Source: Mobula hypostoma (lineage: Eukaryota). Taken from it: DNA of 64,000 nt. The notes beneath the pieces are model-generated. The model saw nothing but the letters and a program-made list of their open reading frames with translations. It made no database searches and was not told the DNA's origin. A program made the position numbers and the translations under genes. The stretch lies in assembly GCF_963921235.1 (NCBI RefSeq), contig NC_086108.1:66900001-66964000 (forward strand). The letters run 5' to 3'. Shown piece after piece: positions 8,953 through 58,381 of this stretch. The first letter of the stretch is position 1, and every line of letters begins with the position of its first letter.

Positions 8953-8996
8953 TTATAATGAGAGAGGCACTCTATTGCAGCCAGCATCCAGGAGAA

Positions 8997-9278: not shown

Positions 9279-9608
9279 AGAATCTCCTCTGCACCCTCTC
9301 TCTTGCAATGTCCCTAATGTTTCCAATGTTTTGTATTGATTTGAACTGCTTCCTAGCTTTGATATTTTAGAAACTTAGTGATGATGTATAATTCCGAGAA
9401 ACCTATGAGTTCTTGAAGTGCTTGTTCTGATGTACAGGATGTGAGGTGCTTGGTGGTTTTGAAATAATGCAAGTGAACATTCCTCTTGTAAATCATTGCA
9501 TGTTAAATATAATTATGTTCAGCCTCAAGCATTGTCTGCAAGGCTTCTGGTAGGGTGACGAAAAACTTTGAGACAATAGCCTGTGTCCAACCAAAGGTAC
9601 AATTGTTT

Positions 9609-10437: not shown

Positions 10438-10439
10438 CT

Positions 10440-11150: not shown

Positions 11151-11289
11151 GCTTACTTCACTTGCTGCACAATATATACCAACAAGCTTTAATTACAGGA
11201 AGAATTATTGCATGTGCAATTCAAAGGTATTGATGAGACTGGCATATCATATTGTGTAATGGGGTGAAGAACATAAGAAATAATAAGAA

Positions 11290-13520: not shown

Positions 13521-15906
13521 TAAATGCAAGAGCAGGCCATATTGTCCATCAAGCAGTTCCTCCATTGGTTAATCTCTCACCTTTGTGCCTCTTCTCAACA
13601 ATGCTCCCATAATTCTTGGTTTCCATAATGTCCAAAAACTTATTCAGTCTCTGTTTTAAATATATTGAAGAACTGCTCTTCCATTTAGAGAATTCCAAAG
13701 GTTCACACTCTCTGAGTGAAGAAATTTCTCCTCATCTTAATCATGAGCAGCATACTTGCATCCCCATAGCATTTCTACCTTCTACAAAGCACAAATCAAG
13801 AGTGCCATGGCATATCCTTTACTTCCCTGAATGAGCGTGAATCTGAAAATTCTTATGTTTAGCATTCTAAAGTGCCACTCTCTCCAACAGACGTGGCAGC
13901 AATCAAACCGCAGCAACTCATCAAGGGTTTTATGGCTAGACTTCAAAGGCCCTCACAGGGTTAAGGCTGGGCTTCCTGGTTGCCTGTCTATCAACTGGTG
14001 GAGGCAGAGAATGGACACTACAAACCCAGCTACTGAGGTCGTGCTCCAAAACCATCTGGCATTTTGTCTACTGACGGTTATAAATCTCTTTTCACTTGTT
14101 TTTTTTTTCAGTGCCACAGGGCTGATCTACCAGTTCCTTGGTGTACCATAGGACTTTTTCAACTATTACTTGATGTACCACAGTACCATTCTGATGTAGG
14201 GGAAGGACTGTTTGAATGTATGAGGGATCCATTTGATCACATTCTATGAGGGTGTCTGACTTTTGGTGCAAAACTTCTATGAGTGTATATATGGATAGTG
14301 CACGGGATTCATTGCCCAGTTCATCAATCCAGAAACTACCGTTTGGATTGCTGTGGTGTTTCAAATGTGGACTCCACAGACTAAAAACACAATGATTACA
14401 AGCCATGCATAAGGCTTCTGCATAATTCTCTTTTAGCTGTTTTTTCCTGCTCTGGCCTCCCTCTGCTCATTGCTTAATCATCCTGCATTTCTTTGGAAAT
14501 ATTTACTAATGCACCTACGTTTGAGACGAAGCAGGCTGTGTAGAAACAAAAACAGAAAAGCTGCAGGAACTTGGGTAGAGAGGCAGTAACTGGTTTCTCT
14601 TTCCACAGATAATGGATCAAATTGAAGACCTTTCCATCGGCTGACTTGAGAGCTTCTAGCATTTCTGTCTCTGTTTCGTATTCCAGCATATTCGGTTTCA
14701 TTTGATTTCCATCGAAGGCTCGCCAAAGCTACTTAGCTCCTGACTCAGAGATTGGAGCTGAAGATCAGAAAACACCAGTCTAGCATGCTGATATAGCAAC
14801 AGCCAGGAGGCATCAGTTAGCAACAACCCTGCAGGTACTTGATAATTATTTTAAATAGTGCCTGTGGAGTGTTCTTTTTGCTACTGTCCAAGTCTTCATG
14901 CTGAAGCCCAATACAATTACATTGGCATCAATCAACATTAATCACAGACAGATGCTACAATCCACTCACTCAGCCTGCAGAATTCCAGCTGGGCACAAGG
15001 TAATGCTCCCACTGTGCTGTTCACCCAGCGGTTCACCACATAGGAAGCAACTTGATAAATATTGGCATTGTGAATCTTGCACTTTGTGCTTTCTTTTAAT
15101 GACTAATTCAAGTTTAAAGCACTGTAAGTTCAAGTTCCCTTGTATCATTGCAAATACATAGTGAGGGATAGAAAATAGCTTTCACCTTCTGGTTGTAATT
15201 ATTCTTCAACAGCTGCTCCTGTATATTCAATTGCCTCAACATATCTTCCTTAAGGCGATCACGATCTTTTACACACACTATGCCATTAAACAAATATAGA
15301 AGGACACATGCCAAATACACCAATGAAAATCAATTAGATGGTTGGTTGGGATAGTATCCAACAGGATAGAGGAGGCTGAGGGAAGACATAATTGAAGAGT
15401 ACAAGATTATGAGGGGCCAAGACAAAGCGAGAGAGGAAAGATCTCATAGTTGGGGGGGTGGGGTGAATTGAAAGACAGGGACCACATATTTGAAGCAATC
15501 GATAAAAAGGCTAGGGTGAAGAAGAGGCTAAATGTTTTCAATCAGCCAATAGAAAGGGTCTGGATCTCCCTGTCTGTAGTGAAAAAGAGGTGGAAACAAT
15601 CAGCATGTTTAGAACAGATTTGAATGGGAGATTGAGGTATAATCTGCAGGGCTGGGATTTTGTACTGGGGGGTGGTATGAAACTGAGCAACACTTTCCTG
15701 ACTGGCCCAGACATTGTGGGCTAAATTATGCCCTTCGGTGCTGTTAATATTTCATAATTCAAAAATTCCTAGAATTTAAAGCAAAATTATGGTGATCACA
15801 CCATAACCATTTTGATCCTCAACCACCCAACAATTTTCCTCCAAGCAACACACATCAAAGTTGCTGATGAACGCAGCAGGCCAGGCAGCATCTCTAGGAA
15901 GAGGTA

Positions 15907-15944
15907 CAGTCGACGTTTCAGGCCGAGACCCTTCATCAGGACTA
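15907..15944 (-). ncRNA. Minimal type I hammerhead ribozyme motif, intact core
   Basis: Minus strand reads TAGTC-CTGATGA-AGG(GTCTCGG)CCT-GAAAC-GTC^GACTG: stem I TAGTC/GACTG, stem II AGG/CCT, palindromic ACGT stem III. Confidence 0.85.
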
Positions 15945-16019
15945 ACTGAAGGAAGAGTTAGTAAGAGATTTGAAAGTGAGATTTGAGATTTCAAATCTCT
16001 TACTAACTCTTCCTTCAGT

Positions 16020-16057
16020 TAGTCTTGACGAAGGGTCTCGGCCTGAAACATCGACTG
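16020..16057 (+). ncRNA. Hammerhead motif, mutated copy
   Basis: TAGTC-TTGACGA-AGGGTCTCGGCCT-GAAAC-ATC-GACTG; C3U change and broken ACGT palindrome. Confidence 0.6.
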
Positions 16058-16599
16058 TACCTCTTCCTAGAGATGCTGCCTGGCCTGCTGTGTTCACCAG
16101 CAATTTTGATGTGTGTTGTTTGAATTTCCAGCATCTGCAGAATTCCTGTTGTTTGCGAATTTTCCTCCAAGATCCTTTTTGGGAATTCATTATTAATATC
16201 CAAAATACTTTGATATAAAATCACATCTCAATTGCCTCTGTTCAAAACTTAAAAAGCGTAATTCATTCACTTCTGATAATAATATTTGCATTCATAAGCT
16301 CCTGCACCCTATCATAAGTAATTTTTACCTTTTTGATCAATAAAAAATATTTCATTCCATTCATTGCAAATGGTTTTGCTGTGCTTAAATATTCCACACA
16401 GAAAAATCCCTGTGACCTTCATTCCACCCACAGAGGTATCATTAAATTTTAAAAGTTCTGTTTTTCAATCTGAAAATTTATTCCCCACTTTCTACCTACG
16501 GGACCCTAGACTCTGCACAGTTTTTTGGCTGCTATTTATCTTACCTGGCTTCTGATACAAAGCCTCCTTGTTTTTTTCCACAAATTTGATAACTTGTTT

Positions 16600-18527: not shown

Positions 18528-18730
18528 AGGGTGCGTAGTGGTTAGCAGAATCACTTTACAGCCCCAACTATCAGCAATTGGGGTTCGATTCAAGCCGCTG
18601 CATATCAGAAGTTTGTATGTTCTCCCCATGACTGTGTGGGTTTCCTCTGGGTTCTCTGGTTTCCTCCCACATTCCAAAGACATACAGTTAGGGTTAGTGA
18701 GTTGTGGGCATGCTATGTTGGCATCAGAAG
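18528..18730 (+). mobile_element. tRNA-derived V-SINE
   Basis: A-box TAGTGGTTAG, B-box GGTTCGATTC, V-domain tgttctccccatgactgtgtgggtttcctctgggttctctggtttcctcccacattccaaagac. Confidence 0.85.
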
Positions 18731-18734
18731 CATG

Positions 18735-19722
18735 GTGACAGTACCTCCTTGTACAACTGGATTCTCAATTTCCTCACAGACCCCAATGAGTTTGGATTGG
18801 CAACGATAATCGCCTCCACAATCTCCATCAGCACAGGTGCATCACAAGGCATTGTGCTTAGCCCCCTGTTCTATTCACTTTATACTTATGACTGTGAAGC
18901 TAAGCATAGCTCCAGTGCAATTTTTATGTTTGCTGATGACACCACTCTCGCTGGCCGAATTAGAGGTGAGGCATCAGTATATAGGAGGCAGATTGAAAAT
19001 CTTACTGAGTGGTGCCACAACAACAACCTCTCACTCAATGTCAGCAGGACCAAGGAGCTGATTATTGTTTTAGCTGGAGGGGACCAGAGGTCCATGAGCC
19101 AGTCCTCATAGGGGGCTCAGAGATGGAGCTGGTCAGCAACTTTAAATTCTTCAGTGTTATCATCTCAGAGGAACTGTTCCGGGTCCAGCACACAAGAACC
19201 ATTACAAAGAAAGCATGGCAACACCTCTACTTTCTTAAAGTTTGTGGAGATTTAGTAAGTCATCTAGGACTTTGACAGACTTCTATAGATGTGTGGTATA
19301 TTGACTGGTTGCATCACAGCCTTGTATGGAAACTCCGATGTCCTTGAACGGAAAAGCTGACAAAAAGTACTGTATATGACCCAGTCCATCATGGGTAAAG
19401 CCCTCTCCACCACCGAGCCTAGCTACATGGAGCACTGTTGCAGGAAAGCAGCATCCATCATCATGGACCCACACCATCCAGGTCATGCTCTCTTCTTGCT
19501 GCTGCCATCAGGAAGAAGGTGCAGGAGCCTCAGGACTGACGCCACCAATTGATTCTTTTTGTATTGTGCAGTTTGTAGTCTTAGTCCATCCTACTGAGTG
19601 TGGTCCCTCATTGGTTCTATTGTGCTATTTCTATTTACTGTGAATGCCCACAAGAAAATGGATCTCAGGGTTGTATATGGTGACATATGTATACTTGGAT
19701 AATAAAATTACTTTGAATTTTG
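18735..19722 (+). mobile_element. Rex1/Babar-type LINE 3' fragment
   Basis: TGASQGIVLSPLFYSLYTYDC…FADDTT…WCHNNNLSLNVSRTKELI; 3' UTR ends aataaaattactttgaattttga. Confidence 0.9.
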
Positions 19723-23789: not shown

Positions 23790-26568
23790 GTAGAAGGGCT
23801 AAAGTGTGTGTACTTCAATGCAAGAAGAATCAGGAACAAAGGTGATGAACTGAGAGCTTGGATACATACATGGAATTATGATGTAGTGGCCATTACAGAG
23901 ACTTGGCTGGCACCAGGGCAGGAATGGATTCTCAATATTCCTGGATTTCAGTGCTTTAAAAGGGGTAGAGAGTGGGGGAAAGGGGAGGAGGGGTGGCATT
24001 ACTGCTCAGGGATACCATTACAGCTACAGAAAGGGTGGGTAATGTAGCAGGATCCTCTTCTGAGTCAGTATGGGTGGAAGTCAGGAACAGGAAGGGAGCA
24101 GTTAGTATACTGGGAGTATTCTATAGGCCCCCTGGGAACAGCAGATTGGGAGACAGATTTTAGAAAGGTACAAAAATAACAGGGTTGTTATCATGGGTGA
24201 CTTTAACTTCCCTAATATTGATTGGCATCTGATTAGTTCCAAGGGTTTAAATGGGGCAGAGTTTGTTAAGTGTGTCCAGGACGGATTCCTGTCACAGTAT
24301 GCTGACAGGACGACTGGGGGAATGCCATACTAGATCTAATATTAGGTAACGAACCAGGTCAGGACACAGATCTCTCAGTAGGTGAGCATCTGGGGGACAG
24401 TGACCACCGCTCCCTGGCCTTTAGCATTATCATGGAAAAGGATAGAATCAGAGAGGTCAGGAAAATTTTTAACTGGGGAAGGGCAAATTATGAGGCTATA
24501 AGGCTAGAACTTGCGGGTGTGAATTGGGATGATGTTTTTGCAGGGAAATGTACTATGCACATGTGGTCGATGTTTATGGATCTCTTGCAGGATGTTAGGG
24601 ATAAATTTGTCCTGGTGAGGAAGATAAAGAATGGTAAGGTGAAGGAACCATGGGTGACAAGTGAGGTGGAAAATCTGGTCAGGTGGAAGAAGGCAGCATA
24701 CATGAGGTTTAGGAAGCAAGGATCAGATGGGTCTATTGAGGAATATAGGGTAGCAAGTAAAGAGCTTAAGAAGGGGCTGAGAAGAGCAAGTAGGGGGTAT
24801 GAGAAGGCCTTGGTGAGTAGGGTAAAGGAAAACCCCAAGGCATTCTTCAATTATGTGAAGAAAAAAGGGATGACAGGAATGAAGGTAGGACCGATTAGAG
24901 ATAAAGGTGGGAATATTGGAGGCTGTGGAAGTGAGCGAGGTCCTCAATGAATACTTTTCTTCAGTATTCACCAATGAGAGGGAACTTGATGATGGTGAGG
25001 ACAATATGAGTGAGGTTGATGTTTTGGAGCATGTAGATATTAAGGGAGAGTAGGTGTTGGAGTTGTTAAAATACATTAGGACGGATAAGTCCCCGGGGCC
25101 TGATGGAATATTCCCCAGGCTGCTCCACGAGGTGAGGGAAGAGATTGCTGTGCCTCTTGCAAGGATCTTTATGTCCTCGTTGTCCCCGGGAATGGTACCG
25201 GAGGATTGGAGAGAGGCGAATGTTGTCCCCTTGTTCAAAAAAGGTAGTAGGGATAGTCCGGGTAATTATAGAAGAGTGAGCCTTACGTCTGTGGTGGGAA
25301 AGCTGTTGGAAAAGGTTCTTAGAGATAGGATCTATGGGCATTTAGAGAATCGTGGTCTGATCAGCGACAGTCAGCATGGCTTTGTGAAGGGCAGATCGTG
25401 TCTAACAAGCCTGATAGAGTTCTTTGAGGAGGTGACCAGGCATATAGATGAGGGTAGTGCAGTGGATGTGATCTACATGGATTTTAGTAAGGCATTTGAC
25501 AACGTTCCACATGGTAGGTTTATTCAGAAAGTCAGAAGGCATGGAATCCAGGGAAGTTTGGCCAGGTGGATTCAGAATTGGCTTGCCTGCAGAAGGCAGT
25601 GGGTCATGATGGAGGGAGTACATTCAGATTGGAGGGATGTGACTAGTGGGGTCCCACAAGGATCTGTTCTGGGACCTCTACTCTTCGTGATTTTTAGTAA
25701 TGCCCTGGATGTGGGGGTAGAAGGGTGGGTTGGAAAGTTTGCAGATGACACAAAGGTTGGTGGTGTTGTAGATAGTGTAGAGGATCATCAAAGATTGCAG
25801 AGAGATATTGATAGGATGCAGAAGTGAGCTGAGAAGTGGCAGATGGAGTTCAACCCAGAGAAATGTGAGGTGGTACACTTTGGAAGGACAAACTCCAAGG
25901 CAGAGTACAAAGTAAATGGCAGGATACTTGGTAGTGTGGAGGAGCAGAGGGATCTGGGGGTACATGTCCACAGATCCCTGAAAGTTGCCTCACAGGTAGA
26001 TAGGGTAGTTAAGAAAGTTTATGGGGTGTTAGCTTTCATAAATCAAGGGACAGAGTTTAAGAGTCGCGATGTAATGATGCAGCTCTATAAAACTCTGGTT
26101 AGGCCACACTTGGAGTACTGTGTTCAGTTCTGGTCGCCTGACTATAGGAAGGATGTGGAAGCATTGGAAAGGGTACAGAGGAGAATTACCAAGCTGTTGC
26201 CTGGTTTAGAGAGTATGCATTATGATCAGAGATTAAGGGAGCTAGGGCTTTACTCTTTGGAGAGAAGGAAGTTGAGAGGAGACATGATAGAGGTGTACAA
26301 GATATTAAGAGGAATAGATAGAGTGGACAGCCAGCGCCTCTTCCCCAGGGCACCACTGCTCAATACAAGAGGACATGGCTTTAAAATAAGGGGTGGGAAT
26401 TTCAAGGGGGATATTAGAGGAAGGTTTTTTACTCAAAGAGTGGTTCGTGCGTGGAATGCACTCCCTGAGTCAGTGGTGGAGGCAGATACACTAGTGAAGT
26501 TTAAGAGACTACTAGACAGGTATATGGAGGAATTTAAGGTGGGGGGTTATATGGGAGGCAGGGTTTGA
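23790..26568 (+). pseudogene. CR1 ORF2 (AP endonuclease + reverse transcriptase), frameshifted
   Basis: YFNARRIRNK, AITETWL, FYRPP, GDFNFP and SDH endonuclease motifs; DFSKAFD, GVPQGSVLGP, KFADDTK RT motifs. Confidence 0.95.
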
Positions 26569-26797
26569 GGGTCGGCACAACGTTGTGGGCTGAAAGGCCT
26601 GTACTGTGCTGTACTGTTCTATGTTCTATAAGTAGAAAATTTGGCCCCCTCTGCTCTTCTATTCAAAGAGCGGTGGGGGCATCCCTGGCCTCAGTTATTC
26701 AGAGATATTCCTTTTGTCCTATCCATCTATCCCCCACTCCTTTTACAATTTGATACTAACCTATTTTTCCTCCTTCTGAATTCTAACAAGTGGTCAG

Positions 26798-27387
26798 AAG
26801 AGGGCTTGAATACAAGAGCATGGCTTTATAAGGCACTGCTGAGGTCTCACCTTGAATATTGTGAACAGGTTATGGCTCCTCATCTGAGAAAAGATGTGCT
26901 GGCATTGAAAGGGTCCAGAGACGATCATAAGGATGATTCTGGGAATGAAAGGGTTATCATATGAGGAACATTTAATGGCTCTGGGTCTGTACTTGAAGGA
27001 TGAGGAGGGATCTCACTGAAACCCTTTGAACGTTGAAAGGCCCAGACAGAGTAGAGGTGGAAAGGATGTTTCCCATGGTGGGAAAGTCTAGGAAAGAGGG
27101 CACAGCCTTAGGATAGAGGGGCATCCATTTAAAACAGAGATGTGGAGAAACTTCTTTAGTCAGAGGGTGGTGAATTTGTTACCAGTGCAGCTGTGGAGAC
27201 CAGGTTGTTGGGTGTATTTAAGGAAGTGATTGATATGTTCTTGATTGGACATGGCCTCAAAGGTTATGAGGAGAAGGTTGCGGAATGGGGTTGAGGAAGG
27301 GAAAAAATGATCAGCTCTGATTGAAAGGTACAGCAGACCCGCCGGGCCAAATGCCCAATTCTGCTCCTATGTCTTATGATCTTATGG
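26798..27387 (+). mobile_element. CR1 3' fragment
   Basis: LYKALLRSHLEYCEQ…; tail ctcctatgtcttatgatcttatg. Confidence 0.85.
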
Positions 27388-27862
27388 AGTCTTTTACGTG
27401 AAATGTGATCTCAGTTTCTCTTTTTCCAGTAGCCATCAGACCTGCTGAAAGTTTCCAGCATTTTCCCTTTTTATTTCAGTTTCGCAGTGTCTGTAATTTT
27501 TTTCAGGTTTATCACTGATGGACAACTTACAGCAGAGCACTCAGTTCAGATAAAGACAGAAAATTAGACTTTTGTTTTTAAGAGGAAAATAGAATTATTG
27601 CAGAGCGAAATAGGTTGTCTGAATTGCCTACATTTGCCCCAATATCTTATGGAATCATGGAATCAGCAGCACAAAAAAAATTAACATACAAGTACCTCAA
27701 GAAGCTAGTTAGGCAAATGATATGTTACTCTTTTTTTAAACAGGATTGTTGTACAAATGTCCTCCTACAATTGTAAAGTGTTTGACTGAGAATGTATTGA
27801 GTATTGTGTGCAGTATTGTTCTCTTTAATCAAAAGAACTTAAGGTTCCTTAAGGTTGTTATA

Positions 27863-31430: not shown

Positions 31431-31957
31431 GTTTCTCATCAGCATCTGACAAGATTGTCTGGGGTGACAAAAGTCTTATTGGTGCAGTGGTAGCATGGGG
31501 CTGTGCTTTTAAAATTGGAATTGATCTAAGTAACTTGTGAGGGCAAGGATGTTAGCTTGGTTACAACCATAGGGCAGTTCTTTTATCATCACCTTAATGG
31601 ATCAGATTATCAACATTATCCAAATCCATCTTTCATTCTTTTATATATTCCTTACATTTTCAACGCTGGAACTGTACAGTACGAATCTAACTCTTTCAGG
31701 CTCCTCCTAGGTGACTTAAAAAGAGAATCTCACACACATACACTCCAGCACACAACAAGAAAAGAACAGCTAATATTGATCCTAGCTTTATTTGTATTCA
31801 AGATACTTCAGCATAACTTCCAGATGATCTTTTTTATTTGCATCTTATCATTAAGTAGGTGACATATTATCAGTACTGCACCCGATTTTTGTTAATATCT
31901 TGCTAGGTTTCTTTTGGGCAGCTATCCTGTCCTAAGTTCCTGATCTTTATTTATTAC

Positions 31958-34133
31958 AGCTCGACATCTCAACACCATCATCCCCTCAAAACTAATCAGT
32001 GAACTCCAAGACCTGGGCCTCAATACTACTTGTGCAATTAGATCCTGGATTTTCTCACTTGTAGACTCCAGTGAGTTTGGATTGGCAAAAACATCTCCTC
32101 CACACTCTCCATCAGCACAGAAGCAGTGCCGGGATGTGTACTTAGCCCCCTGCTCTACACCTACAGATCCAACACCACATACAGGTTTACTGACAACACC
32201 ATTCTTGTGGGCTGTATTAAAGGGGGTGATGAATCAGCACACAGGAGGAACACTGAAAACTTGGCTTAGTGGTGCATTAACAACAACCTCTTGGTCTTGC
32301 AGAACCCTGGGCCTCTATACCTCCCTCTGCAGTTGGATCCTTGACTTCCTAACCGGAAGACCACAGTCTGTGCGGATTAGTGATAACACATCCTCCTCGC
32401 TGACGATCAACACTGGCACACCTCAGGGGTGTGTGCTTAGCCCACTGCTCTACTCTCTATATACACTTGACTGAGTAGCTAGGCATAGCTCCAATACCAT
32501 CTATAAATTTGCTGATGATACAACCATTGTTGGTAGAATCTCAAGTGGTGACGAAAGGGCGTACAGGAGTGAGATATGCCAACTAGTGGAATGGAGCTGC
32601 AGCAACAACCTGGCACTCAACATCAGTAAGATGAAAGAGCTGATTGTGGACTTCAGGAAGGGTAAGACAAAGGAACACATACCAATCCTCATAGAGGGAT
32701 CAGAAGTGGAGAGAGTGAGCAGTTTCAAGTTCCTAGGTGTCAAGATCTCTGAGGATCTAACCTGGTCCCAACATATCGATATCGTTATAAAGAAGGCAAG
32801 ACAGCAGCTATACTTCATTAGGAGTTTAAAGCGATTTGGCATGTCAACAAATACACTCAAAAACTTCTATAGATGTACTGTGGAGAGCATTCTGACAGGC
32901 TGCATCACCGTCTGGTATGGAGGGGCTACTGCACAAGACTGAGAGAAGCTGCAGAGCTGTAAATTTAGTCGGCTCCATCTTGGGTATTAGCCTACAAAAT
33001 ACCCAGGACATCTTCAAGGAGCGGTATTTCAGAAAGGCAGTGTTCATTATTAAGGACCTCCAGCACCCAGGGCATGCCCTTTTCTCACTGTTACCATCAG
33101 GTAGGAGGTACAGAAGCCTGAAGGCACACACTCAGCGATTCAGGAACAGCTTCTTCCCCTCTGCCATCCGATTCCAAAATGGACATTGAATCTTTGGACA
33201 CTACTTCACTTTTTCTAATATACAGTATTCCTGTTTTTTCACATTTTTAAAAATCTATTCAAGATATGTATACTGTAATTTATTTATTTATTTATTATTA
33301 TTTCATTTATCATTTTTTTCTATATTATGTATTGTATTGAACTGCTGCTGCTAAGTTAACAAATTTCACGTCACATGCCAGTGATAATAAACCTGATTCT
33401 GATTCAATGTCAATAAGACCGAGGAACTGAGTGTTGACTCAGGTGAGGGAAATCAGAGGTCCATGAGCCAGTAATCATCAGAGGATCAGAGGTGGAGAGG
33501 GACGGTAACTTTAAATTCCTGGGTGTCACTATCTCAGAGGACCTGTCCTGGACCCATCATATAAATATTATTGTGAAGAAAGCACAACAGTGCCTTTACT
33601 TCCTCAAGAGTCTGCAGAAGTTTGGCATGTCATTGAAAACCTTGGCAAACTACTATAGATGTGTGGTGGAAAGTGTGCTGACTGGCTGCATTACGGCCTG
33701 GTATGGGGGCAACAATGCCTTTGAGTGGAAAATCCTACGAAAGGTAATGGATTTGACCCACTACATCACAGGTAAAACCCTCCCAACTACTGAGCACACC
33801 TAGATGAAACATTGCCATAGAAAAGCAGCCTCCATCATCAAAGATCCTCACCACCCAGGCCATGCTCTTTTCTCACTGCTACCATCAGGTAAAAGGTATA
33901 TGTACCTCAAGAACAGTTATTACCCCTCAACCATCAGGCTCTTGAACAAAAGGGATAATTACATTCATTTAAGGACTCTGTTATATTGTTATTTCATGCT
34001 CATTATTATTTATATCTTCATTTGCACTGTTTGTTTACAGTTTCTGATGTTTATTGATTACAGTTACTGTTCTACAGATTTGCTAAGTATGCCCACAGAA
34101 AAAGAATCTCAGGGTTGTATGTATGTACTCTGA
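31958..34133 (+). mobile_element. Rex1/Babar-type LINE fragment split by a younger Rex insertion
   Basis: The RT region stops at …aacaacaacctc (about 32290) and resumes at caatgtcaataagacc (33405), rejoining the NNNL-LNVNKT motif. Confidence 0.85.
32297..33404 (+). mobile_element. Younger Rex1/Babar-type LINE 3' fragment (nested)
   Basis: [55 protein letters not shown]; tail aataaacctgattctgatt. Confidence 0.92.
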
Positions 34134-35100: not shown

Positions 35101-35599
35101 TCCAATATTGTACGCAGCAGCATTTTAACACACAGTGTGGTCTAACAATAAAAGATACAATTAAATAATGCCAGAAATTGTGATGCCTCAAACCCAGCTG
35201 ATGAGTCGGAGTGGATAGGGGCATGAATACAACATAATCAGCAACAGTCCAAAGCATTGAGCCAGTAATTCTTCTTGAAAAAGAGTTTGATGTAAACAAA
35301 ATCTTCACAGGAACAAGAGTTACAAAGGGTTACATGGCATGATAGTAGTCAGTCAGTTTGCTGCTTGTGCAGATCTGTGAGCCTCGTGTACGAAAGGCTC
35401 ACTGGTTAGATGGTCCAACTGTTGTGGTATGGAGCTATGTGGGTCAGGAAAATCTCAGAGTTTGCTGTCAATCGGTTAATTAATCTAATTGTGTATTCAT
35501 GGGGTATTTGTTGGCCAGGCTTGGATGACAAATTTTAAATTAGCCAGAAATGATTTCTACAAACAAAATGGTTATTATTAGTTTATCTATAAATTGGCC

Positions 35600-36160
35600 A
35601 GGGAGTATGGGGTGTCAGGGAGGGGTAGCACCTCTGGTGGGGGAACATGTCGCGTCCTTTTCAAGGCAGTTAGTCCACCTTTGGTCCCCACCTGGTACTC
35701 AGCTCTCACCTGTGGCTCCTTGTAGCCGTTTGCATGCGATAGCGGCCACACCCCGGGCAACAGCTTCAACAAGCCGACTAAACCAGGTGAGGGGAGCCGA
35801 TGGGTCTCAAACCCTCGGTGAGATAGGGAGTTGTCTATCCCAGCATGTGAAGACAGACTCCGGTGGATTGAGCGGATGAGACCAACAGAAGGTCCAACGG
35901 TCAAGGAGGCGGTCTCTTCAAGCCTCGTGGAACGTGTAGAGCAGGACAAGACACAGGAGACATCCTGGTCATCCACTGTGCCTAGTCCCATCTCCAGCCG
36001 TCTCGACTCTGTCTTGCCACTGGATCCAGATGGGAATTGGGAAGAGAGAGTGAGGCTGACGCTGTGCAACTCTCCCCCACTTAAATCCAAATCACGTGTT
36101 AGTCTCAACACCATCAAATTGTGTTGAGGTCCTCATTGATGTCGACAATGGACGAACACA
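35600..36160 (+). mobile_element. 561-bp non-coding retroelement (RTE-5'-UTR-like) with 11-bp TSD
   Basis: GC-rich insert bounded by ATAAATTGGCC at 35589-35599 and 36161-36171; no terminal inverted repeats and no recognisable protein domain. Confidence 0.8.
35609..35793 (+). ncRNA. Candidate HDV-like self-cleaving ribozyme (family A)
   Basis: P1 GGGGTGT/ACACCCC; P2 CTCTCACCTGT/ACCAGGTGAGGG (one bulge); P3 GGC/GCC; L3 TCCTTGT; P1.1 CC/GG followed by GCAAC; P4 GCTT-CAAC-AAGC; J4/2 CTAA with C at 35778. Confidence 0.7.
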
Positions 36161-37514
36161 ATAAATTGGCCTCTAATTACCTTGGAATACATCTGCTCCG
36201 AGAGGGACAACAATATTTATAGTGGGGCTGTGTTTCTAGCTACATCACAGAAAGGAGCTTTTGAATCAGAATGACTTTTCTAATAAACTCTTTTTGTATT
36301 TTCTCCATGTCTGTCTTAAATAATAACACACAGAATTAGACACAACATACAATAGTGCAAAGAAGAAATTAAATTTGATCCCTGTGCACCATTCTATTAA
36401 ATTTATTTTACTTGTCAGACTATGCAGCTTTTCCAAATATTTTACACAAGTTATCAAACTAGACAAGTTGCTAAAAAACTCCAAAATTGAGTGATGATTT
36501 CTCAATGCCAGAGAATATGGTCTTGAATCAGGGACAGCAAGTGAACACTTCAATTAAAGTTTGAAGTGGATCCATTGATACCTCCTCAGAAATAACCATG
36601 GAAGATTCACTATAACTGATATTCTAAGCTAGTTTTATTTAATGTTTTCACCCTTGTGGTAGGATAGTTTACAGTGAATCTACCTTACTCAAGATTGTAG
36701 AACAAAGTTTTAAACATTTTACAAATTGAAGAAGAAATTATCTTGAAAATGAAATTAATATATGTAAACTTTATCTTTATTCCAAAAAACTCTAGTAGAT
36801 TATTGAATATCTGGAAAAATACAAAAATTTTATTTGCTATTTTCTCCCTGCTGTTCTTTTCAGATACTTACAGCTGATAGGATTCAACACATTGGCATCT
36901 GGACAAAATTATAGAAATTTCCAACATATTTAGTGGCAGCATGTGAAAAATATTTCAGACATTTCTCCTTCTGAGAATAATAGAGTTATATTACAGGTGG
37001 AAGAAAAAATACGTTTGGTCCCAGCATTAACACCATAAACATAACAGTAACTGCCTGGATAAGAGATTTGCCAGATGACAGCTAGTTGCATCTGGAGAAT
37101 AGTGAGACCAGTTTACATGACACAATGGGAGTGTTAAAGTTTAATGTCCTCCATTAAGACTAAAAAAAAACTCAAACGTAATCTCAGCAGTTTTGTGACA
37201 TGTTATGCTATAAGGTGACACATTGTGCACATGTGCTAAAGATATTTCACCAGCAGTGAGGTGCTGATGTCAGTGATGTTAGGTGGAAATGACATTGAGT
37301 GAAAGTGAGGTATGGTCCCTATAGAATCCATAAAAGGTAAACAACAGCAACATCTGAAAGCAGGTTGCACAGCTGTTTGTTGTTTGCAACAGGGAACCTT
37401 TGTTCAAACAGCATCAAACTCATTATCTATCATCAACTTCATTATTACACAATGCTCTAACAATATCAGAGGGTGCTTGTAACATATATTATCAAAAGAT
37501 ATTACTTACAAATA

Positions 37515-38262
37515 GCAGAACATAAAACATAGCACAGTACAGACCACTTGGCCATGATGTTGTGCCAACCTTTTAACCTAATCTAAAATCAAATTAACCC
37601 TTCCCACCCCATGGTCCTCCATTTATCTTTCATTCATGTGCCTATCTGAGTCTCTTAAATAGCCCTAATGTATCCGCCTCTACTATCACTCCTAGCAGAG
37701 CTTTCCACACACCCAGTATTTTCTGTGTAAGCAAACTATCTCCCTATACTTTCCACCAATCATCTTAAAATGATGCCCCTCATCTGATCCATTTCCATCG
37801 TGGGAAAAGGACTCTGGGTGCCCACTCTTTTAATGCCTCTAATCATATTGTACACCTCCACCAACTCAACTCTCATCCTCCTTCGTTCCAAAGAGAAGAG
37901 CCCCAGCTCATTAAACCTATCCCCATGAGACACGCTCTCCAATCCAGGCAGAATCCTGGTAAATCTCCACTGCACCCTCTCTAAAGCTTCCACATCCTTT
38001 ATATAAAACTGAACACAACATTCCAAATATAGTCAAACCGGAGCTTCATAGAGCTGCAACATTACCTCATGGCTCTTGAATGCAATGCCCTGACTAGTGA
38101 AGGCCAACGCGCCATACGCCTTCTTAATCACCCCATCAACTTGTACATCTTTGAGGAATTTATGCACATGGATCACAAGATCACTCTGTTCCTCCACATT
38201 GCTAAGAACCCTGCTATTAATCGTATACTCTGCATCCAAGTTTGACTTTCCAAAGTGAATCA
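37515..38262 (-). mobile_element. CR1 3' fragment
   Basis: IHFGKSN…EEQSDLVIHVH…DVEALERVQWRFTRILPG on the minus strand. Confidence 0.9.
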
Positions 38263-39351
38263 AAAAAATTTATTTACTGGAAATTAAACTTGGAACCCAA
38301 GTGCCCAAAAGCTGTTATCTATGTAACTGTGAGGCCAACAATTGTCGCCATTACTGATAAAATAAGCATCTGAGCTCAAGTGAACAATTAAGCATGCAAG
38401 TTACAAAATGGTGTTGGAGATACCAGACTCTCTTTTTGGTTTCAAGAAAACAATATCTCATTGTCTGGTACCCTGCTTAAATACAACAAGCAATATAAAT
38501 TCCAGTAACTGCAGAAGTAAAATAAATGCAAATTAGCCACTGAAAGTCAATATAGATTACAAGTCAACATCACTAATACTGCAAGTTAACTATTAAATGT
38601 ATGGCATGCCAATCTTCCAGATTTTAATGTTGAAGATTTTTTTAAAATGAAGTATTTTTGACTTTTGTATTTTTTCACACTGAATCCAATTTTTCTTTCA
38701 GTCACTTTGTTTCTTCCTGCACCTGATTAAACCTTATATTCATCCACCGCACCTTACACTTGGTTGTCTAGATCCTGGTCAGGTCATTTCACAATCCTTT
38801 AGTCCGACGGGTTATAAAGAAACAGGGCTGCTTTTCCAGTTCACTCAGCTTCAGCAGGGCCACGTAGAGGCAGCAACATTATGCACATCGTGATCTTACC
38901 TCAGCAATTTGCTTTGCAAAAATATTGTAAAGAATTAAGTAGCAAAGCCAGGTCTAACATCGTAAGTTGTTGGTTGGCTCAAGGTTTCCTGGGTCAATAT
39001 CTGACAATTATCTTTGCAGATCAGGGGCAATGGAGGATGTTACATTCATGTCCTTTATACTGAGTCAATGGATTGAAGATGGGCCAGTAGTTGGGCTGTC
39101 AGAGTAGGTAATCAAGAGGCTAAAAGGAAAAATGAAATCTATGAAATTGCTGTATTTGGAAAAAGTACACATATCTGCAATTGAGGTGAGAGACAAATTG
39201 AAGTTGGTTGCAGTGTAGTCTGCATGGCAGCAAAGCCACAACTATTTGCTACCCAAATTTATATATGAGAAGTGTTTACAACAGTCCAAAACACACTTTT
39301 TCTTTTTGTTCAACTACATTTTCTTTTGCATACCTTGGAATATTTCAAATA

Positions 39352-39540
39352 CATTCAGTGGCCACTTTATTAGGCACATCTGTACACCTGCTTGTTAGTG
39401 CAAAATATCTAATCAGGCAAACATTTGGCAGCAACTTGATGCATAAGATCATGCAGACATGGTCAAGAGGTTCAGTTGCTATTCAAACCAGACATTAGAA
39501 TAGGGAAGAAATGTGATGTAAGTGACTTTGACCGTGGATT
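39352..39540 (+). mobile_element. Tc1/mariner DNA transposon, left end fragment
   Basis: TA followed by CATTCAGTGGCCACTTTATTAGG (Tc1-type TIR), then a decayed transposase start GKKCDVSDFDRG. Confidence 0.75.
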
Positions 39541-39569
39541 ATTGATTCATTACATACAGTTTGCAAGCC

Positions 39570-42235
39570 CATGAGACCATAAGACATAGGAACACAATTA
39601 GGCCATTTGGCCCATTGAATCTGCTCCACCATTCAATCATGGTTGATCCTTTTCTCCCCATCCTCAGACCCCCTCCCTGGCCTTTACCCCATAACCCTAA
39701 ATGCTGAGGCTAATCAAGCAGCTACCAATCTCCACCTAAATACACCCAACAACCTGGCCTCCACAGCTGCCTATGGTAACAAGTTCCACAAATTCCACCA
39801 CCCTCTGGCTAAAGAAATTTCTCCGCATTCCTGTTTTAAATGGACATCCCCTCTAACCTAAGGCTAGGACCTTTTGTCCTAGACTCCCCCACCGTGGGAA
39901 AAATCTTTTCCACATCTACTCTGTCTAGGTCTTTCAACATTTGAAAGTTTTCACTGAGATCCCCCCTCATCCCAGCGAGTACAAGGTCAGAGCCATCAAA
40001 CATTCGTCATATGATAACCTTTTCATTCCCAGAATCATCCTTGTGAACCTCCTCTGGACCCTTTCCAATGCCAGCACATCTCTTCTCAGATAAAGAGTCC
40101 AACACTGTTCATAATACTCAAGCCAAGGCCTCACTAGTGCCTTCTAAAGCCTTAGCATCACATCCCTGCTTTTTTATTCTAGACCTCTTGAAATGAATGC
40201 TAACATTGCTTTTGCCTTCCTCACCACTGACTCTACCTGCAAGTTAACCTTTAGCATGTTCTGCACAAGGACTCCCAAGTCCCTTTGCATTTCAAATTTT
40301 TGGATTTTCTCCCTGTTTAGAAAATAGCTTGCACATTTAATTCTTCTAACAAAGTACATGACCATGTATTTTCCAACACTGTTTCATTTGCCACTTTCTT
40401 GCCCATTGTCCTAATCTGTCTAAATCCTTCTGCAGCCTTCCTGTTTCCTTAACACTACTTGCCCCTCCACCAATCTTCATATCTTCCGCAAGCTTGGCAA
40501 CAAAGCCATCTATTCTATTATCTAAATCATTGATAAAAGAAGCAGTCCCAACACTGACCCCTGCAGAACACCACAAGTCACTTGCAGCCAGCCAGAAAAC
40601 GATCCTTTTATTCCCACTTGCTGCCTCCTACCAATCAGCCAATGCTCTAACCATGCTAGTAACTTTCCTGTAATACAATGGGCTCTTAACTTAGTAAGCA
40701 GCCTCAGGTGTTGCACCTTGTCAAAGACCTTCTGAAAGTCCAAATATACAACATCTATTGCATCCCCTTTATCTACCATACTTGTAATCTCCTCAAAGAA
40801 ATCCAATGATTTGTCAAGCAAGATCCATCTGGCAACCTCGTCCTTAACAATTTACACCAACTTCATCCCAACCACTGAGGTTAGGCTAACTGTTCTATAC
40901 TTTCCTTTCTGTTGCCATCCTACTTTCTTAAAGAGTGGAGTGACATTTGCAATTTTCCATGCCAGTGACAAATGATTCTTGAAAGATCATTACTATTGCT
41001 ACCACAATCTCTACCACTATTTCTTTCAGAACCCTAGGGTGCAGTTCATCTGGTCCAGATAACTTATGTAGCTTTAGGTCTTTTAGCTTTTTGGCCACCT
41101 TCATCCTTGAAATTGTAACTGAACTGACTTTTCTTCTCTTACATCTTTCAACACATGGCACACTGCTAGTGTCTTCCACCTGATGCAAAATACTCATTTA
41201 GTTCACCTGCCATGTCCTTGTCCCCTGTTATTATTTCTCCGGCCTCATTTTCTAGCAGTCCTATATCCACTCTAATCTCTCTTATTATATCACATACTTG
41301 AAAAAGCTTTTTCTATACACCTTGATATGTTAGCAAGCTTGCTTTCATATTTCACTTTTTCCCTCCTGATGATTCTCTTAGTTGCTTTCTGTAGGTTTTT
41401 GAAAACTTCCCAATCCTCTACCTTCCTGCTAATTTTTGCTTTGTTGTATGCCCTCCCTTTTGCCTTTACATTAGCTTTGACTTCCCTTGTCAACCACAGT
41501 TGTACTATGTTGAGTTTTTCTTTGTTTTTGGAATACACCTATCCTGCACCTTCCTCATTTTCCCCAGAAACCCACCCCATTGCTACTCCGATGTCATCAC
41601 TGCCAGCTTCTCCTTCCAATTTACTTTGGCCAACTCCTCTCTCATACCACTGTCATTTCCCTTATTCCACTGAAATACTGCTATGTCAGACTTTACTTTC
41701 TCCCTATCAAATTTCAAGTTGAACTCAATCTTATTGTGATCACTGCCTCCTAAGGGATCCTTTATCTTAAGCTCCCGAATCGCCTCTGATCATTACCTGA
41801 CACCCAATCCAGTATAGCTGCTCTCCTAGTAGGCGCAATGACAAACTGCTCTTAAAAGCTACCTCATAGGCATTCAACAAATTCACTCTCTTGGGATCTA
41901 TTACCAATCTGCTTTTCCTTTATCTTCCTGTATGTTAAAATCTCCCATGACTATCATAACATTGCCCAATTGACACAACTTTTCTATTTCCCATTGAAAT
42001 CTGTAGTCCACATCCCAGCTGCTGTTTGAAAGCCTGTATATAACTGCCAACAGGGTCTACTTACCCTTGTCACATCTTTCTAATGATTTGATGCCATCCT
42101 TGACCGGTAGAGCCATGCCACCCCTTCTGCCTACCTTCCTATCTCTCTGATACAATGTGTAAACCTTGGACATTCAGCTCCCATCTACAGCCATTCTTCA
42201 GCCATGACTCAGTGACGGCCACAACATCATACCCA
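39570..42235 (-). mobile_element. CR1 ORF2 fragment (endonuclease remnant + RT + 3' UTR), decayed
   Basis: YDVVAVTESWL, SGPDELHPRVLKE, YLDFQKVFDKV, GVLQGSVLG on the minus strand; (TCTTATGG)-type tail at about 39570-39590. Confidence 0.92.
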
Positions 42236-47090: not shown

Positions 47091-50000
47091 GTCTGTTTCA
47101 ATCTAACTGAATTCCTCGGGACCAGTGGTCTGTTTCAATCAAACTGTGCACCACAAGTTCAGTGATCCGTTTCAGTCTAACTGTGTCCACAGGACCAGTG
47201 ATCCCTTTCAGTCTAACTGTATACTGCAGGACCAGTGATCCATTTCAACTTGTGTACCGCAGGACCAGTGATCTGTTTCAGTCTAACCGTATCCACAGGA
47301 CCATTGATCCGTTTCAGTCTAACTGTATACTGCAGGACCAGTGATCCATTTCAACTTGTGTACCGCAGGACCAGTGATCCGTTTCAGTCTAACTGTGTAC
47401 CGCAGGACCAGTGATCCGTTTCAGTCTAACTGTGTACTGCAGCACCAGTGATCCGTTTCAACTTGTGTACCGCAGGACCAGTGATCCGTTTCAGTCTAAC
47501 TGTATACTGCAGGACCAGTGATCCGTTTCAGTCTAACTGTATACTGCAGGACCAGTGATCCGTTTCAGTCTAACTGTGTCCACAGGACCAGTGATCCATT
47601 TCAACTTGTGTACCGCAGGACCAGTGATCTGTTTCAGTCTAACTGTGTCTACAGGACCAGTGATCCGTTTCAGTCTAACTGTGTACTGCAGGACCAGTGA
47701 TCCATTTCAACTTGTGTACCGCAGGACCAGTGATCCATTTCAGTCTAACTGTATACTGCAGGACCAGTGATCTGTTTCAGTCTAACTGTGTACCGCAGGA
47801 CCAGTGATCCGATTCAGTCTAACTGTGTACCACAGGACCAGTGATCCGTTTCAGTCTGACTGTGTACTACAGTACCAGTGATCCGTTTCAGTCTAACTGT
47901 GTACCGCAGGACCAGTGATCCATTTCAACTTGCGTAACGCAGGACCAGTGATCCGTTTCAGTCTAACTGTGTACTGCAGGACCAGTGATCCGTTTCAACT
48001 TGTGTACTGCAGGACCAGTGATCCATTTCAACTTGTGTACCGCAGGACCAGTGATCCGTTTCAGTCTAACTGTATACTGCAGGACCAGTGATCCGTTTCA
48101 TTCTAACTGTGTACTGCAGGACCAGTGATCTGTTTCAGTCTAACTGTGTACCGCAGTACCAGTGATCCGTTTCAGTCTAACTGTGTACCGCAGGACCAGT
48201 GATCCGTTTCAACTTGTGTACTGCAGGACCAGTGATCCATTTCAACTTGTGTATCGCAGGACCAGTGATCCGTTTCAGTCTAACTGTGTACTGCAGGACC
48301 AGCGATCCGTTTCAGTCTAACTGTGTCCACAGGACCAGTGATCCGTTTCAGTCTAACTGTGTCCACAGGACCAGTGATCCATTTCAACTTGTGTACCGCA
48401 GGACCAGTGATCCGTTTCAGTCTAACTGTGTACCGCAGGACCAGTGATCCATTTCAACTTGTGTACCGCAACACCAGGGATCCGTTTCAGTCTAACTGTA
48501 TACTGCAGGACCAGTGATCAGTTTCAGTCTAACTGTGTACCACAGGACCAGTGATCCGTTTCAACTTGTGTACTACAGGACCAGTGATCCATTTCAACTT
48601 GTGTACAGCAGGACCAGTGATCTGTTTCAGTCTAACTGTGTACCGCAGGACCAGTGATCCGTTTCAGTCTAACTGTGTACCGCAGGACCAGTGATCCGTT
48701 TCAACTTGTGTACCGCAGGACCAGTGATCCGTTTCAGTCTAACTGTGTCCACAGGACCAGTGATCCATTTCAACTTGTGTACCGCAGGACCAGTGATCCG
48801 TTTCAGTCTAACTGTGTCCACAGGACCAGTGATCCATTTCAACTTGTGTACTGCAGGACCAGTGATCCGTTTCAGTCTAACTGTGTACTGCAGGACCAGT
48901 GATCCATTTCAACTTGTGTACCGCAGGACCAGTGATCCGTTTCAACTTGTGTACTGCAGGACCAGTGATCCATTTCAACTTGTGTACCGCAGGACCAGTG
49001 ATCTGTTTCAGTCTAACTGTGTCCACAGGACCAGTGATCCATTTCAACTTGTGTATCGAAGGACCAGTGATCCGTTTCAGTCTAACTGTATACTGCAGGA
49101 CCAGTGATCCATTTCAACTTGTGTACCGCAGGACCAGTGATCCATTTCAACTTGTGTACTGCAGGACCAGTGATCTGTTTCAGTCTAAATGTGTACTGCA
49201 GGACCAGTGATCCATTTCAACTTGTGTACCGCAGGACCAGTGATCCGTTTCGGTCTAACTGTATACTGCAGGACCAGTGATCCGTTTCAGTCTAACTGTG
49301 TACTGCAGGACCAGTGATCCATTTCAACTTGTGTACCGCAGGACCAGTGATCCATTTCAGTCTAACTGTATACTGCAGGACCAGTGATCTGTTTCAGTCT
49401 AACTGTGTACCGCAGGACCAGTGATCCGATTCAGTCTAACAGTGTACCACAGGACCAGTGATCCGTTTCAGTCTAACTGTGTACTGCAGGACCAGTGATC
49501 CATTTCAACTTGCGTAACGCAGGACCAGTGATCCGTTTCAGTCTAACTGTGTACTGCAGGACCAGTGATCCGTTTCAACTTGTGTACTGCAGGACCAGTG
49601 ATCCATTTCAACTTGTGTACCGCAGGACCAGTGATCCGTTTCAGTCTAACTGTATACTGCAGGACCAGTGATCCGTTTCATTCTAACTGTGTACTGCAGG
49701 ACCAGTGATCTGTTTCAGTCTAACTGTGTACCGCAGGACCAGTGATCCGTTTCAGTCTAACTGTGTACCGCAGGACCAGTGATCCGTTTCAACTTGTGTA
49801 CTGCAGGACCAGTGATCCATTTCAACTTGTGTATCGCAGGACCAGTGATCCGTTTCAGTCTAACTGTGTACTGCAGGACCAGCGATCCGTTTCAGTCTAA
49901 CTGTGTCCACAGGACCAGTGATCCGTTTCAGTCTAACTGTGTCCACAGGACCAGTGATCCATTTCAACTTGTGTACCGCAGGACCAGTGATCCGTTTCAG

Positions 50001-50966
50001 TCTAACTGTGTACCGCAGGACCAGTGATCCATTTCAACTTGTGTACCGCAACACCAGGGATCCGTTTCAGTCTAACTGTATACTGCAGGACCAGTGATCA
50101 GTTTCAGTCTAACTGTGTACCACAGGACCAGTGATCCGTTTCAACTTGTGTACTACAGGACCAGTGATCCATTTCAACTTGTGTACCGCAGGACCAGTGA
50201 TCTGTTTCAGTCTAACTGTGTACCGCAGGACCAGTGATCCGTTTCAGTCTAACTGTGTACCGCAGGACCAGTGATCCGTTTCAACTTGTGTACCGCAGGA
50301 CCAGTGATCCGTTTCAGTCTAACTGTGTCCACAGGACCAGTGATCCATTTCAACTTGTGTACCGCAGGACCAGTGATCCGTTTCAGTCTAACTGTGTCCA
50401 CAGGACCAGTGATCCATTTCAACTTGTGTACTGCAGGACCAGTGATCCGTTTCAGTCTAACTGTGTACTGCAGGACCAGTGATCCATTTCAACTTGTGTA
50501 CCGCAGGACCAGTGATCCGTTTCAACTTGTGTACTGCAGGACCAGTGATCCATTTCAACTTGTGTACCGCAGGACCAGTGATCTGTTTCAGTCTAACTGT
50601 GTCCACAGGACCAGTGATCCATTTCAACTTGTGTATCGAAGGACCAGTGATCCGTTTCAGTCTAACTGTATACTGCAGGACCAGTGATCCATTTCAACTT
50701 GTGTACCGCAGGACCAGTGATCCATTTCAACTTGTGTACTGCAGGACCAGTGATCTGTTTCAGTCTAAATGTGTACTGCAGGACCAGTGATCCATTTCAA
50801 CTTGTGTACCGCAGGACCAGTGATCCGTTTCGGTCTAACTGTATACTGCAGGACCAGTGATCCGTTTCAGTCTAACTGTGTACTGCAGGACCAGTGATCT
50901 GTTTCAGTCTAACTGTGTACCGCAGGACCAGTGATCCGTTTCAGTCTAACTGTGTCCACAGGACCA
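47091..50966. repeat. Minisatellite of interspersed 37-bp and 33-bp units with a 1580-bp higher-order duplication
   Basis: Units GCAGGACCAGTGATCCGTTTCAGTCTAACTGTGTACC (37) and GCAGGACCAGTGATCCATTTCAACTTGTGTACC (33); rare variants recur at +1580. Confidence 0.98.
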
Positions 50967-57734: not shown

Positions 57735-58381
57735 TTTCTGAATGGTGGATCTGTGGAATTCTTTGCCACTGGCAGCTGTGGATGCCAAGTCTTCATGTAC
57801 ATTTAAGGCAGAGGTTAATAGATTCTTAGCAAGTCGGGCAGCATCCATGGAAATGATGAGTCAACATTTCGAGCCCGAACCCTTCGTCAGGACTGTAGAG
57901 GGAAGGGGCAGAGACCCTATAAAGAAGGTGGGGGGAGGGCGGGAAGGAGAAGGCTGGTAGGTTCCAGGTGAAAAACCAGTAAGGGGAAAGACAAAGGGTA
58001 GGGGAGGGGAAGCAGGGAGGTGATAGGCTGGAAAGGTGAAAAAGGAATAGGGGAAAACATAATGGGTAGTAGAAGGAGGCAGAACCAGGGCCTCTGCCCC
58101 TTCCCTCTACAGTCCTAATGAAGGGTTCCGGCCCGAAATGTCGACTCATCGTTTCCACGGATGCTGCCCGACCTACTGAATTCCTCCAGCGTGTTGTGAG
58201 TGTTGCTTTGATCCCAGCATCTGCAGATTATTTTGTGTTAATAGATTCTTGATTGGTCAGGGTATGAAGGGATACAGGGAGAAGGCAGGAAATTGGGGCT
58301 GAGAGAGAAATTGGATCAGCCATGATGAAATAGCAGATGAGCCAAATGGCCTAATTCTGCTCCTATATCTCATGGTCTTAG
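57735..58381 (+). mobile_element. CR1 3' end, split by a PLE-derived insertion
   Basis: MVDLWNSLPLAAVDAKSSCTFKAEVNRFL continues after 58250; tail ctatatctcatggtctta. Confidence 0.85.
57828..58236. mobile_element. Fold-back PLE-derived element with 14-bp TSD and two hammerhead motifs
   Basis: TSD GTTAATAGATTCTT at 57814-57827 and 58237-58250; motifs at 57858-57895 (-) and 58110-58147 (+), both partly mutated. Confidence 0.88.

Follow-up and report, generated by a model that had tools for sequence, protein, structure and literature searches.

The stretch from 35600 to 36160 of the window (the whole 64,000-nucleotide piece of Mobula hypostoma DNA analysed here, the element and its parts lying on its forward strand) raises the question of whether a short non-coding retroelement begins with an HDV-like ribozyme that carries an extra hairpin, and, if so, at which base it would be cut and from where the element obtained it. 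HDV-like ribozymes at the 5′ ends of non-LTR retrotransposons were reportedly described by Ruminski et al. in 2011, and it is already known in principle that non-LTR elements can carry a ribozyme at the head and have internally deleted parasites. In the accounts given by PMC5786205 and PMC6765202, such ribozymes stand at the 5′ ends of six LINE clades (R2, R4, RTE, Ingi/L1Tc, R1 and LOA), and bipartite non-autonomous LINEs are reported from RTE, Ingi, Vingi and R2.

The element, its copies and its parent LINE

The element (35600..36160) occurs once in the window and lies between two 11-bp target-site duplications (TSDs), ATAAATTGGCC at 35589..35599 and the same ATAAATTGGCC at 36161..36171. A DNA search of the 3.48-Gb assembly with the element returned 4,924 first-look candidates, a number that includes related families and is not usable as a copy number. 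All 40 of the candidates that were scored are near full length, with 92–94% identity for the 39 besides the window copy. The 30 copies that we fetched have both ends in common and unrelated flanks, with TSDs of about 7–15 bp where these are detectable and 3′ ends made of short CA, CAA or ACCA repeats. Compared to the majority of 30 aligned copies, the window copy has 38 differences, 16 of them owing to CpG decay, and the other 29 have 9–23 each. The window element is one decayed copy of a high-copy family.

The initial annotation had described a non-autonomous, TSD-bounded non-LTR retroelement, and this description holds: there are 561 bp between the 11-bp TSDs, the ends of a LINE are retained, and there is no ORF. 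Frames noted for coding potential are a 91-codon stop-free stretch in copy L003 and a 181-codon antisense frame in the window; protein P0001 had no Pfam match above cut-off, and two protein searches with stop-free frames found two singletons only, which look like translated UTR. A Pol III SINE with a tRNA, 5S or 7SL head was considered and rejected, the head being the LINE's own 5′ end and A and B boxes being absent (neither box pattern matched in L008, and there is no tRNA gene in the window). A solo LTR was likewise set aside, as the ends read GGGG...ACA(ACA)n rather than TG...CA and the TSDs vary from 7 to 15 bp instead of having a fixed 4–6 bp. Among the sequencing runs listed for the stretch, 20 of 24 rows hold part of it, including seven coded organisms. 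Four runs were aligned, of which a raw-read run gave 0 reads, two contig sets guessed to be RNA gave 955 and 602 records, and one RNA run gave 2; since contigs cannot show 5′ ends, strand or level, the run data are no evidence for cleavage or expression.

The parent was reached through a stop-free frame of one copy that matched a database protein (source name Elysia marginata) running into an endonuclease-like stretch. A genome search with the endonuclease-linked protein returned LINE loci, and the regions upstream match the element in 20 of 30. Eight loci of the closest family were fetched, half of them complete (L268, L269, L270 and L273; 4,083–4,095 bp). These four share head and tail with the element, their EN-RT homology begins at about nt 830, and three have a detectable TSD. 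Pfam RVT_1 and Exo_endo_phos domains were found in L065 and the related L066. Positions 1–521 and 518–560 of the short element match the two ends of these 4.09-kb LINEs: 35600..36116 corresponds to part of the parent 5′ UTR (87–95% identity over positions 1–521), and 36117..36160 to the LINE 3′ end followed by the short CA/CAA/ACCA microsatellite tail (80–93%). Judged from these matches to both ends of complete LINEs, the element is an internal deletion derivative of a 4.09-kb EN+RT LINE, from which it has roughly 517 nt of 5′ UTR together with the final 44 nt, and its ribozyme-like head is, on the same alignments, inherited from the autonomous LINE.

The deletion junction (36104..36128, read by eye) is an inverted repeat that links the end of the UTR-derived part with the beginning of the 3′ tail, of 11 bp in the majority line (by eye) and 8 bp in the window copy. 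As the junction joins two inverted-repeat arms, it suggests as the origin of the deletion a template jump, made where 5′ UTR and 3′ tail were paired over a long range. The hairpin repeat at the junction is common to the 5′ UTR and 3′ tail of the LINE, a hint at pairing of the LINE RNA ends.

The parent has one EN+RT ORF and no ORF1, the longest stop-free stretch in the first 900 nt being 81–125 aa, and we take its endonuclease motifs to be of RTE type. We assign it to RTE by these motifs and by its architecture (a single ORF, a length near 4 kb, the microsatellite tail and the TSD length), not by a tree; the architectural traits are those described in PMC6007223. By sequence, the element is a member of the bipartite non-autonomous RTE kind, resembling RTESINE1/2, WALLSI3, Bov-A and RTE-N2_Lch as described by Kojima 2018 (PMC5786205) in having LINE 5′ and 3′ ends only, no ORF, a microsatellite tail and 7–15-bp TSDs. 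Four motifs of the family are absent from the supplements of PMC5786205, PMC7846101 and PMC7245038, and we found no paper holding three of them; the family may already be in Repbase or Dfam. R2 SIDEs (PMC3414825) and trypanosome NARTc/SIDER (PMC4035085) are similar in being short, internally deleted, dependent on a parent protein and in keeping the ribozyme head, but they belong to other LINE clades, SIDEs are rDNA-specific, and the descriptions compared contain no L3 insert.

Other repeats lie elsewhere in the window. These are a 3.8-kb minisatellite with 37- and 70-bp periods (47119-50966), three palindromic inverted-repeat elements of 240–340 bp seen by self-comparison (15842-16122, 5072-5314 and 57833-58172), and many decayed reverse-transcriptase fragments of other LINE types, recognised by eye from translations (8500-13500, 18700-19700, 24300-27400, 31900-34000 and 37500-41700).

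A predicted HDV-type fold with a hairpin in L3

All of the HDV-type segments that had been listed for the window copy are present, in order and where they had been placed, including GGGGTGT (35609-35615) and its complement ACACCCC (35748-35754). P2 is formed by 35703..35712 and 35784..35793, ten contiguous pairs with an additional U35713-A35782 pair across a bulged C, and P3 by GGC (35714..35716) and GCC (35745-35747). The 3′ strand of P1 follows at once and is itself followed by the GG of P1.1 (together 35748..35756, with GG at 35755-35756). P4 (35761..35776) is a 6-bp hairpin with compensatory changes between families, one pair of which is broken in the window copy (A35762), and J4/2 (35777..35783) holds the putative catalytic C35778 in a CNRA context, where the window copy has A in place of G35777 and TAA after the C. 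J1/2 (35607..35702), rightly described at the outset as long and structured, is a 96-nt hairpin domain closed by a predicted helix, with a GGGG-UAGC bulge-ACC ... GGU-CCCC motif and double-sided changes between lineages.

The same head occurs in three other lineages of the genome, which we call B, C and D, and in a metagenome-contig record, L128, making five with the family of the window element (A). P1, for which 6–7 bp and a G at the cut site are usual, has 7 bp in A, B, D and L128, and 6 bp plus a C-A mismatch, at position 7, in C. G1 pairs with C, in keeping with the G1-Y rule, J4/2 reads CUAA or CCAA after the P4 hairpin, in keeping with CNRA, and P1.1 (CC in L3 with the GG after P1′) is paired in 91–93% of cells across alignments. 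When the consensus is folded free of pseudoknots, a longer P3 (GUGGCU/GGCCAC) is in competition with P1′ and P2. The window copy itself is damaged, having lost G1 and with it a P1 pair in the first of two registers discussed below, a pair each in P4 and in the L3 hairpin, and the G that precedes the catalytic C, and in view of these mutations it probably cleaves poorly or not at all.

L3 (35717..35744) is 28 nt long in the window copy and begins with UCCNNG, the equivalents of U20, C21, C22 and G25 in HDV numbering, followed by the insert. The extra hairpin (35725..35743) is weakened in the window copy; in families A, C and D its stem has 6 bp and its loop 7 nt, and in B and L128 the stem is down to 5 bp, one pair being absent on both sides. 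The start reads UCCCCG in A, UCCUCG in C, UCCAAG in B and D and UCCUUG in the window copy, so that A and C fit the published TYYHCG, and B, D and the window copy are without its C at position 24. The proposal of an extra hairpin within L3 stands, and the insert is retained in five diverged lineages. The alternative raised alongside it, that GCC at 35725-35727 might be P3′, fares badly: GCC occurs in 1/30 and 1/36 family-A loci and the rest have GCT, and because it rests on a private T-to-C mutation we place the insert, from the aligned copies, within L3. A kissing interaction through a palindromic GCAUGC loop was rejected as a general feature, the family B majority reading GCACGC.

Published RNArobo descriptors (PMC4870747 supplement) give 7–8 nt for L3, about 50 nt for J1/2 and CNRA for J4/2. 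Family A agrees with their sequence rules but departs from them in the lengths of J1/2 and L3, the latter being 26–28 nt across families. Long J1/2 segments are known from R2 ribozymes, and both the long structured J1/2 and the long P2 recall drz-Agam-2-1 (PMC4908430). Compared to the HDV-like ribozymes of other LINEs, the double pseudoknot at the first base, G1, the UCC..G start of L3, P1.1 and CNRA are alike, whereas the 26–28-nt L3 with its hairpin, the doubled 5′ strand of P1 and a G1-C instead of a G1-U pair set the present fold apart, and cleavage here is predicted. By structure the fold would work in the manner of an HDV ribozyme, but its L3 exceeds the canonical length, which makes it a candidate variant rather than a canonical member. 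We found no HDV-like ribozyme with an L3 hairpin in the literature searched, and one may be described in Ruminski 2011, Webb 2009, Webb and Luptak 2011 or one review. The suggestion of an undescribed variant survives for the L3 insert, which we did not find in print, but not for ribozyme-headed RTEs and bipartite derivatives, which are already known.

We searched with a permissive HDV descriptor, which encodes only the rules common to HDV folds, allows L3 to reach 33 nt and was composed after the structure was seen; its P4 spacing was relaxed after a stricter version missed the window copy, owing to the one broken P4 pair there. This relaxed descriptor, which answers an earlier call for a search allowing an L3 insert, finds exactly one site in the 64-kb window (G1 = 35609, L3 = 28 nt, C = 35778), none in 10,000 dinucleotide shuffles of the 231-nt head (35580-35810) and no core in 100 shuffles of the whole window on both strands. 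With L3 limited to 7–8 nt the window yields no match, and neither does any of the 180 loci tested. Rfam gave no match in the window at gathering thresholds, and for 35400-36400 it reported no ribozyme family even at E<=10, with HDV, CPEB3 and related models unmatched. The pseudoknot-free folding energy is ordinary (z = 0.14 for 35600-35800, and a second z of -0.27).

Conservation, 5′ ends and the register of P1

Among representatives of the five lineages, the core from P2 to P2 is 82–96% identical, compared to 49–83% for J1/2 and 46–69% for the next 230 nt. Considering 176 cores, U20 is kept in 175, C21 and C22 in 173 each, G25 in 165 and the catalytic C in 170, and positions 23 and 24 of the L3 start vary by family. 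Conservation within a family reflects its source copy, not selection on each copy. A search for distant relatives gave one metagenome match (L128), none in viral contigs and one irrelevant match in a prokaryote contig, and a further genome search returned only known families. A core covariance model, run on the fetched loci, scored 44 sites in 60 sources and none in eight head loci of the related family E.

In an alignment of 11 sequences 97.6% of cells pair. Double-sided changes occur at 7 of 49 pairs (five of them in J1/2, the other two in P4), compared to 2.8 expected; only 2 of 500 shuffles reach as high, a figure that relatedness can inflate. A 22-sequence core alignment has double-sided changes at three P4 pairs, and a change in P1.1 that comes from a single old copy only. 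The nested P2 (10 bp) and P3 (3 bp) are paired in 100% of cells of the 11 sequences. Neither alignment has a double-sided change in P1, P2 or P3, which are essentially invariant across the five lineages, and this leaves the pseudoknot itself without covariation support. The check for covariation proposed earlier succeeds for P4 and J1/2 and gives no signal for P1, P2 and P3. The GGGG-UAGC bulge-ACC / GGU-CCCC motif of J1/2 (35622-35632 and 35683-35689) is nearly invariant in the five lineages as its surroundings diverge; it has compensatory changes in L128 and is a candidate protein or tertiary contact.

Families B (L068-L097) and D (L145-L168) are mostly short, about 510–530 bp, with tails of their own and an endonuclease downstream in 1/30 and 0/23, which points to ribozyme-headed short derivatives having arisen several times. 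Family E (L036-L038, L040, L042 and L047-L049) consists of LINEs with long ORFs, up to 1,047 codons in L066; it shares UTR positions 232–505 and has a GC-rich, partly tandem-repeat head without a match to the ribozyme model, a swap of the 5′ end. There are also composites, which carry a tRNA-like SINE head behind the 5′ UTR with its ribozyme, about 400–420 nt after the start of P2; they are L200, L210, L211 and L220 of family A, which end in the RTE tail, and 9/30 family C loci. The usual SINE order is reversed in these composites, the ribozyme preceding a head of Pol III type, and the arrangement recurs in two lineages.

The family begins with a doubled heptamer, GGGGTGT-AT-GGGGTGT, a 9-nt tandem that offers two registers for P1. 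The first unit (35600..35606, AGGGAGT in the window copy compared to GGGGTGT in the family) starts at base 1 of the element, as does its complementarity to P1′. The second, with the CAGG that follows it (35609..35619), is the alternative register, and 35610-35619 is also predicted to pair with 35691-35700 (P1.2) and so to close J1/2. Folding of both L008 and the window copy puts the second heptamer in a paired state inside J1/2, with a predicted probability of 0.91–1.0 at 6 of 7 bases, and the duplex energies in L008 are -18.3 kcal/mol for the second unit in the closing helix and -11.8 kcal/mol for P1, which is identical for both registers in intact copies. The closing helix, 10 bp, is kept by one-sided changes across lineages.

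The mapping of 5′ ends that had been proposed was done on two sets of copies chosen independently of their 5′ ends, and the starts cluster at positions 1–3 of the element. A core-only query gave 40 matches, of which 36 were fetched, the window copy and three loci already sampled being left out; two more were dropped as overlapping the list from the full-element search, leaving 34 core-selected copies. These begin at positions 1–3 in 20 cases, 4–8 in 8, 9–11 in 2 and further in 4. Among 30 LINE loci found with LINE-specific UTR, the core is absent in 8, and 13 of the 22 that hold it begin at positions 1–3. Taken together with the pairing of the second unit in the closing helix, these ends make the first unit the most likely P1 strand at the element boundary in our model, with the cut predicted at 35599/35600. 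The initial annotation had put the cut at 35609, 9 nt downstream of the one predicted here; the complementarity that it saw at 35609-35615 is present, but its assignment as P1 is not supported, and the first-unit register removes the puzzle of a cut 9 nt inside the element.

In family C, 8/30 copies start at the second unit, and one copy has three heptamer units. Second-unit starts number 3/46 in the two A sets without such a bias (p = 0.02), but the difference weakens to p = 0.08 when the core-selected A set is used alone, and the sets come from different queries. Family B has no second-unit starts among 30 copies and a closing helix as weak as that of family C (-10.3 and -13.8 compared to -9.9 to -11.8 kcal/mol). 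That the 5′ ends of family C fit cleavage in either register is only suggestive. A T stands at position -1 in 42 of 61 copies with intact heads, compared to a background of 34% (p = 2e-8). Genomic HDV is described as cleaving fastest with U at -1 (PMC1874588), but the T mostly belongs to the TSD where one is seen (by eye), and an integration preference explains the bias equally well.

Mechanism, competing readings and significance

We infer a nested double pseudoknot of HDV type at the start of both the LINE and its derivative, and we think it likely that this family head is an HDV-like ribozyme cleaving at base 1. Target-primed reverse transcription by a LINE EN-RT protein on a 3′ tail leaves TSDs. 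Source copies would be read through from host transcripts, and the ribozyme would cut 5′ of the first G of the first heptamer, giving the RNA an exact 5′ end; the parent EN-RT protein would then bind the retained 3′ tail and insert a copy of the RNA by such priming, with TSDs of 7–15 bp. The second heptamer would normally be sequestered in the closing helix of J1/2 and could act as a spare P1 strand, and the closing helix would bring P1 and P2 close to each other, in the way of P1.2 in drz-Agam-2-1, where this role of J1/2 is described as measured (PMC4908430). The extra hairpin would project from the 3′ side of L3 after UCCNNG, as a tolerated or useful peripheral domain.

The placement of 5′ ends at base 1 is equally expected from an internal promoter. 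In an unlikely reading that nonetheless needs weighing, the fold is real but weakly or no longer catalytic, serving in 5′ protection, as a site for the LINE protein or as a translation element, with the 5′ end set by an internal Pol II promoter or by fall-off of the reverse transcriptase. The large L3 insert adjoins the active site, family C has its P1 mismatch, short 5′ truncations are common, the related family E carries a GC-rich head instead, and for the Pr77 signature of trypanosomes both a promoter and a ribozyme role are described (PMC3383444). Such a loss of function sits poorly, however, with P1 starting exactly at base 1, and with the catalytic-C equivalent, U20/G25 and P1.1 being kept in five lineages as the flanking UTR fell to 46–69%. 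It is improbable that the main cut precedes the second heptamer (35609), the first 9 nt being an upstream relic. That register is the only one to pass the descriptor in the window copy, it matches the first in P1 energy, 8/30 family C copies start there, and R2 elements are described as able to use either of two duplicated P1 strands (Eickbush 2013, PMC3774820), with likewise two possible cut sites. However, such a cut would erase the first unit from progeny, and this unit is kept in all five lineages; only 2/34 core-selected copies start at positions 9–11, and the second unit is predicted to be sequestered. As described there, the R2 duplicate comes from the 28S target and decays, whereas here it is element-owned, kept across lineages and part of the closing helix.

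For the insert, we regard as very improbable an arrangement in which L3 is canonical (8 nt), GCU or GCC directly after it is P3′, and the insert falls between P3′ and P1′. It would preserve an 8-nt L3, GGC pairing with GCU through one G-U, but besides the private nature of GCC, the GUU of L128 leaves two G-U pairs, the triplet itself forms the upstream arm of the hairpin, both arms of which lose one pair together in B and L128, and it is the downstream GCC that adjoins P1′ as in HDV. We give hardly any credence to a chance resemblance to HDV in a GC-rich LINE UTR, for which the absence of an Rfam match and the ordinary folding energy might speak, since neither the 10,000 shuffles of the head nor the 100 shuffled windows reproduced the core, which moreover lies at base 1 of the element, with covariation in P4 and J1/2. 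Going beyond the likely cleavage at base 1, it is possible, though we hold this with some doubt, that an active HDV-like subclass with a fixed L3 hairpin and a doubled P1 heads several RTE lineages and thousands of vertebrate insertions, and that the L3 hairpin or the J1/2 bulge motif couples cleavage to loading of the LINE protein through a tertiary or protein contact. Being invisible to Rfam and to published descriptors, such a subclass would make HDV-like ribozymes far commoner in vertebrates than catalogued.

If the head does cleave, the HDV core would tolerate a structured L3 insert of 18–20 nt, where published descriptors fix the loop at 7–8 nt, and this would widen ribozyme searches and offer a new site for engineering in L3. 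RTE UTRs are used as templates for gene writing, and R2 templates are described as being protected by a 5′ fold of delta type (PMC13708176). For dispersed vertebrate RTE LINEs and their short derivatives, in which the ribozyme is so far only predicted, cleavage at the head would provide a testable origin of their precise 5′ ends.
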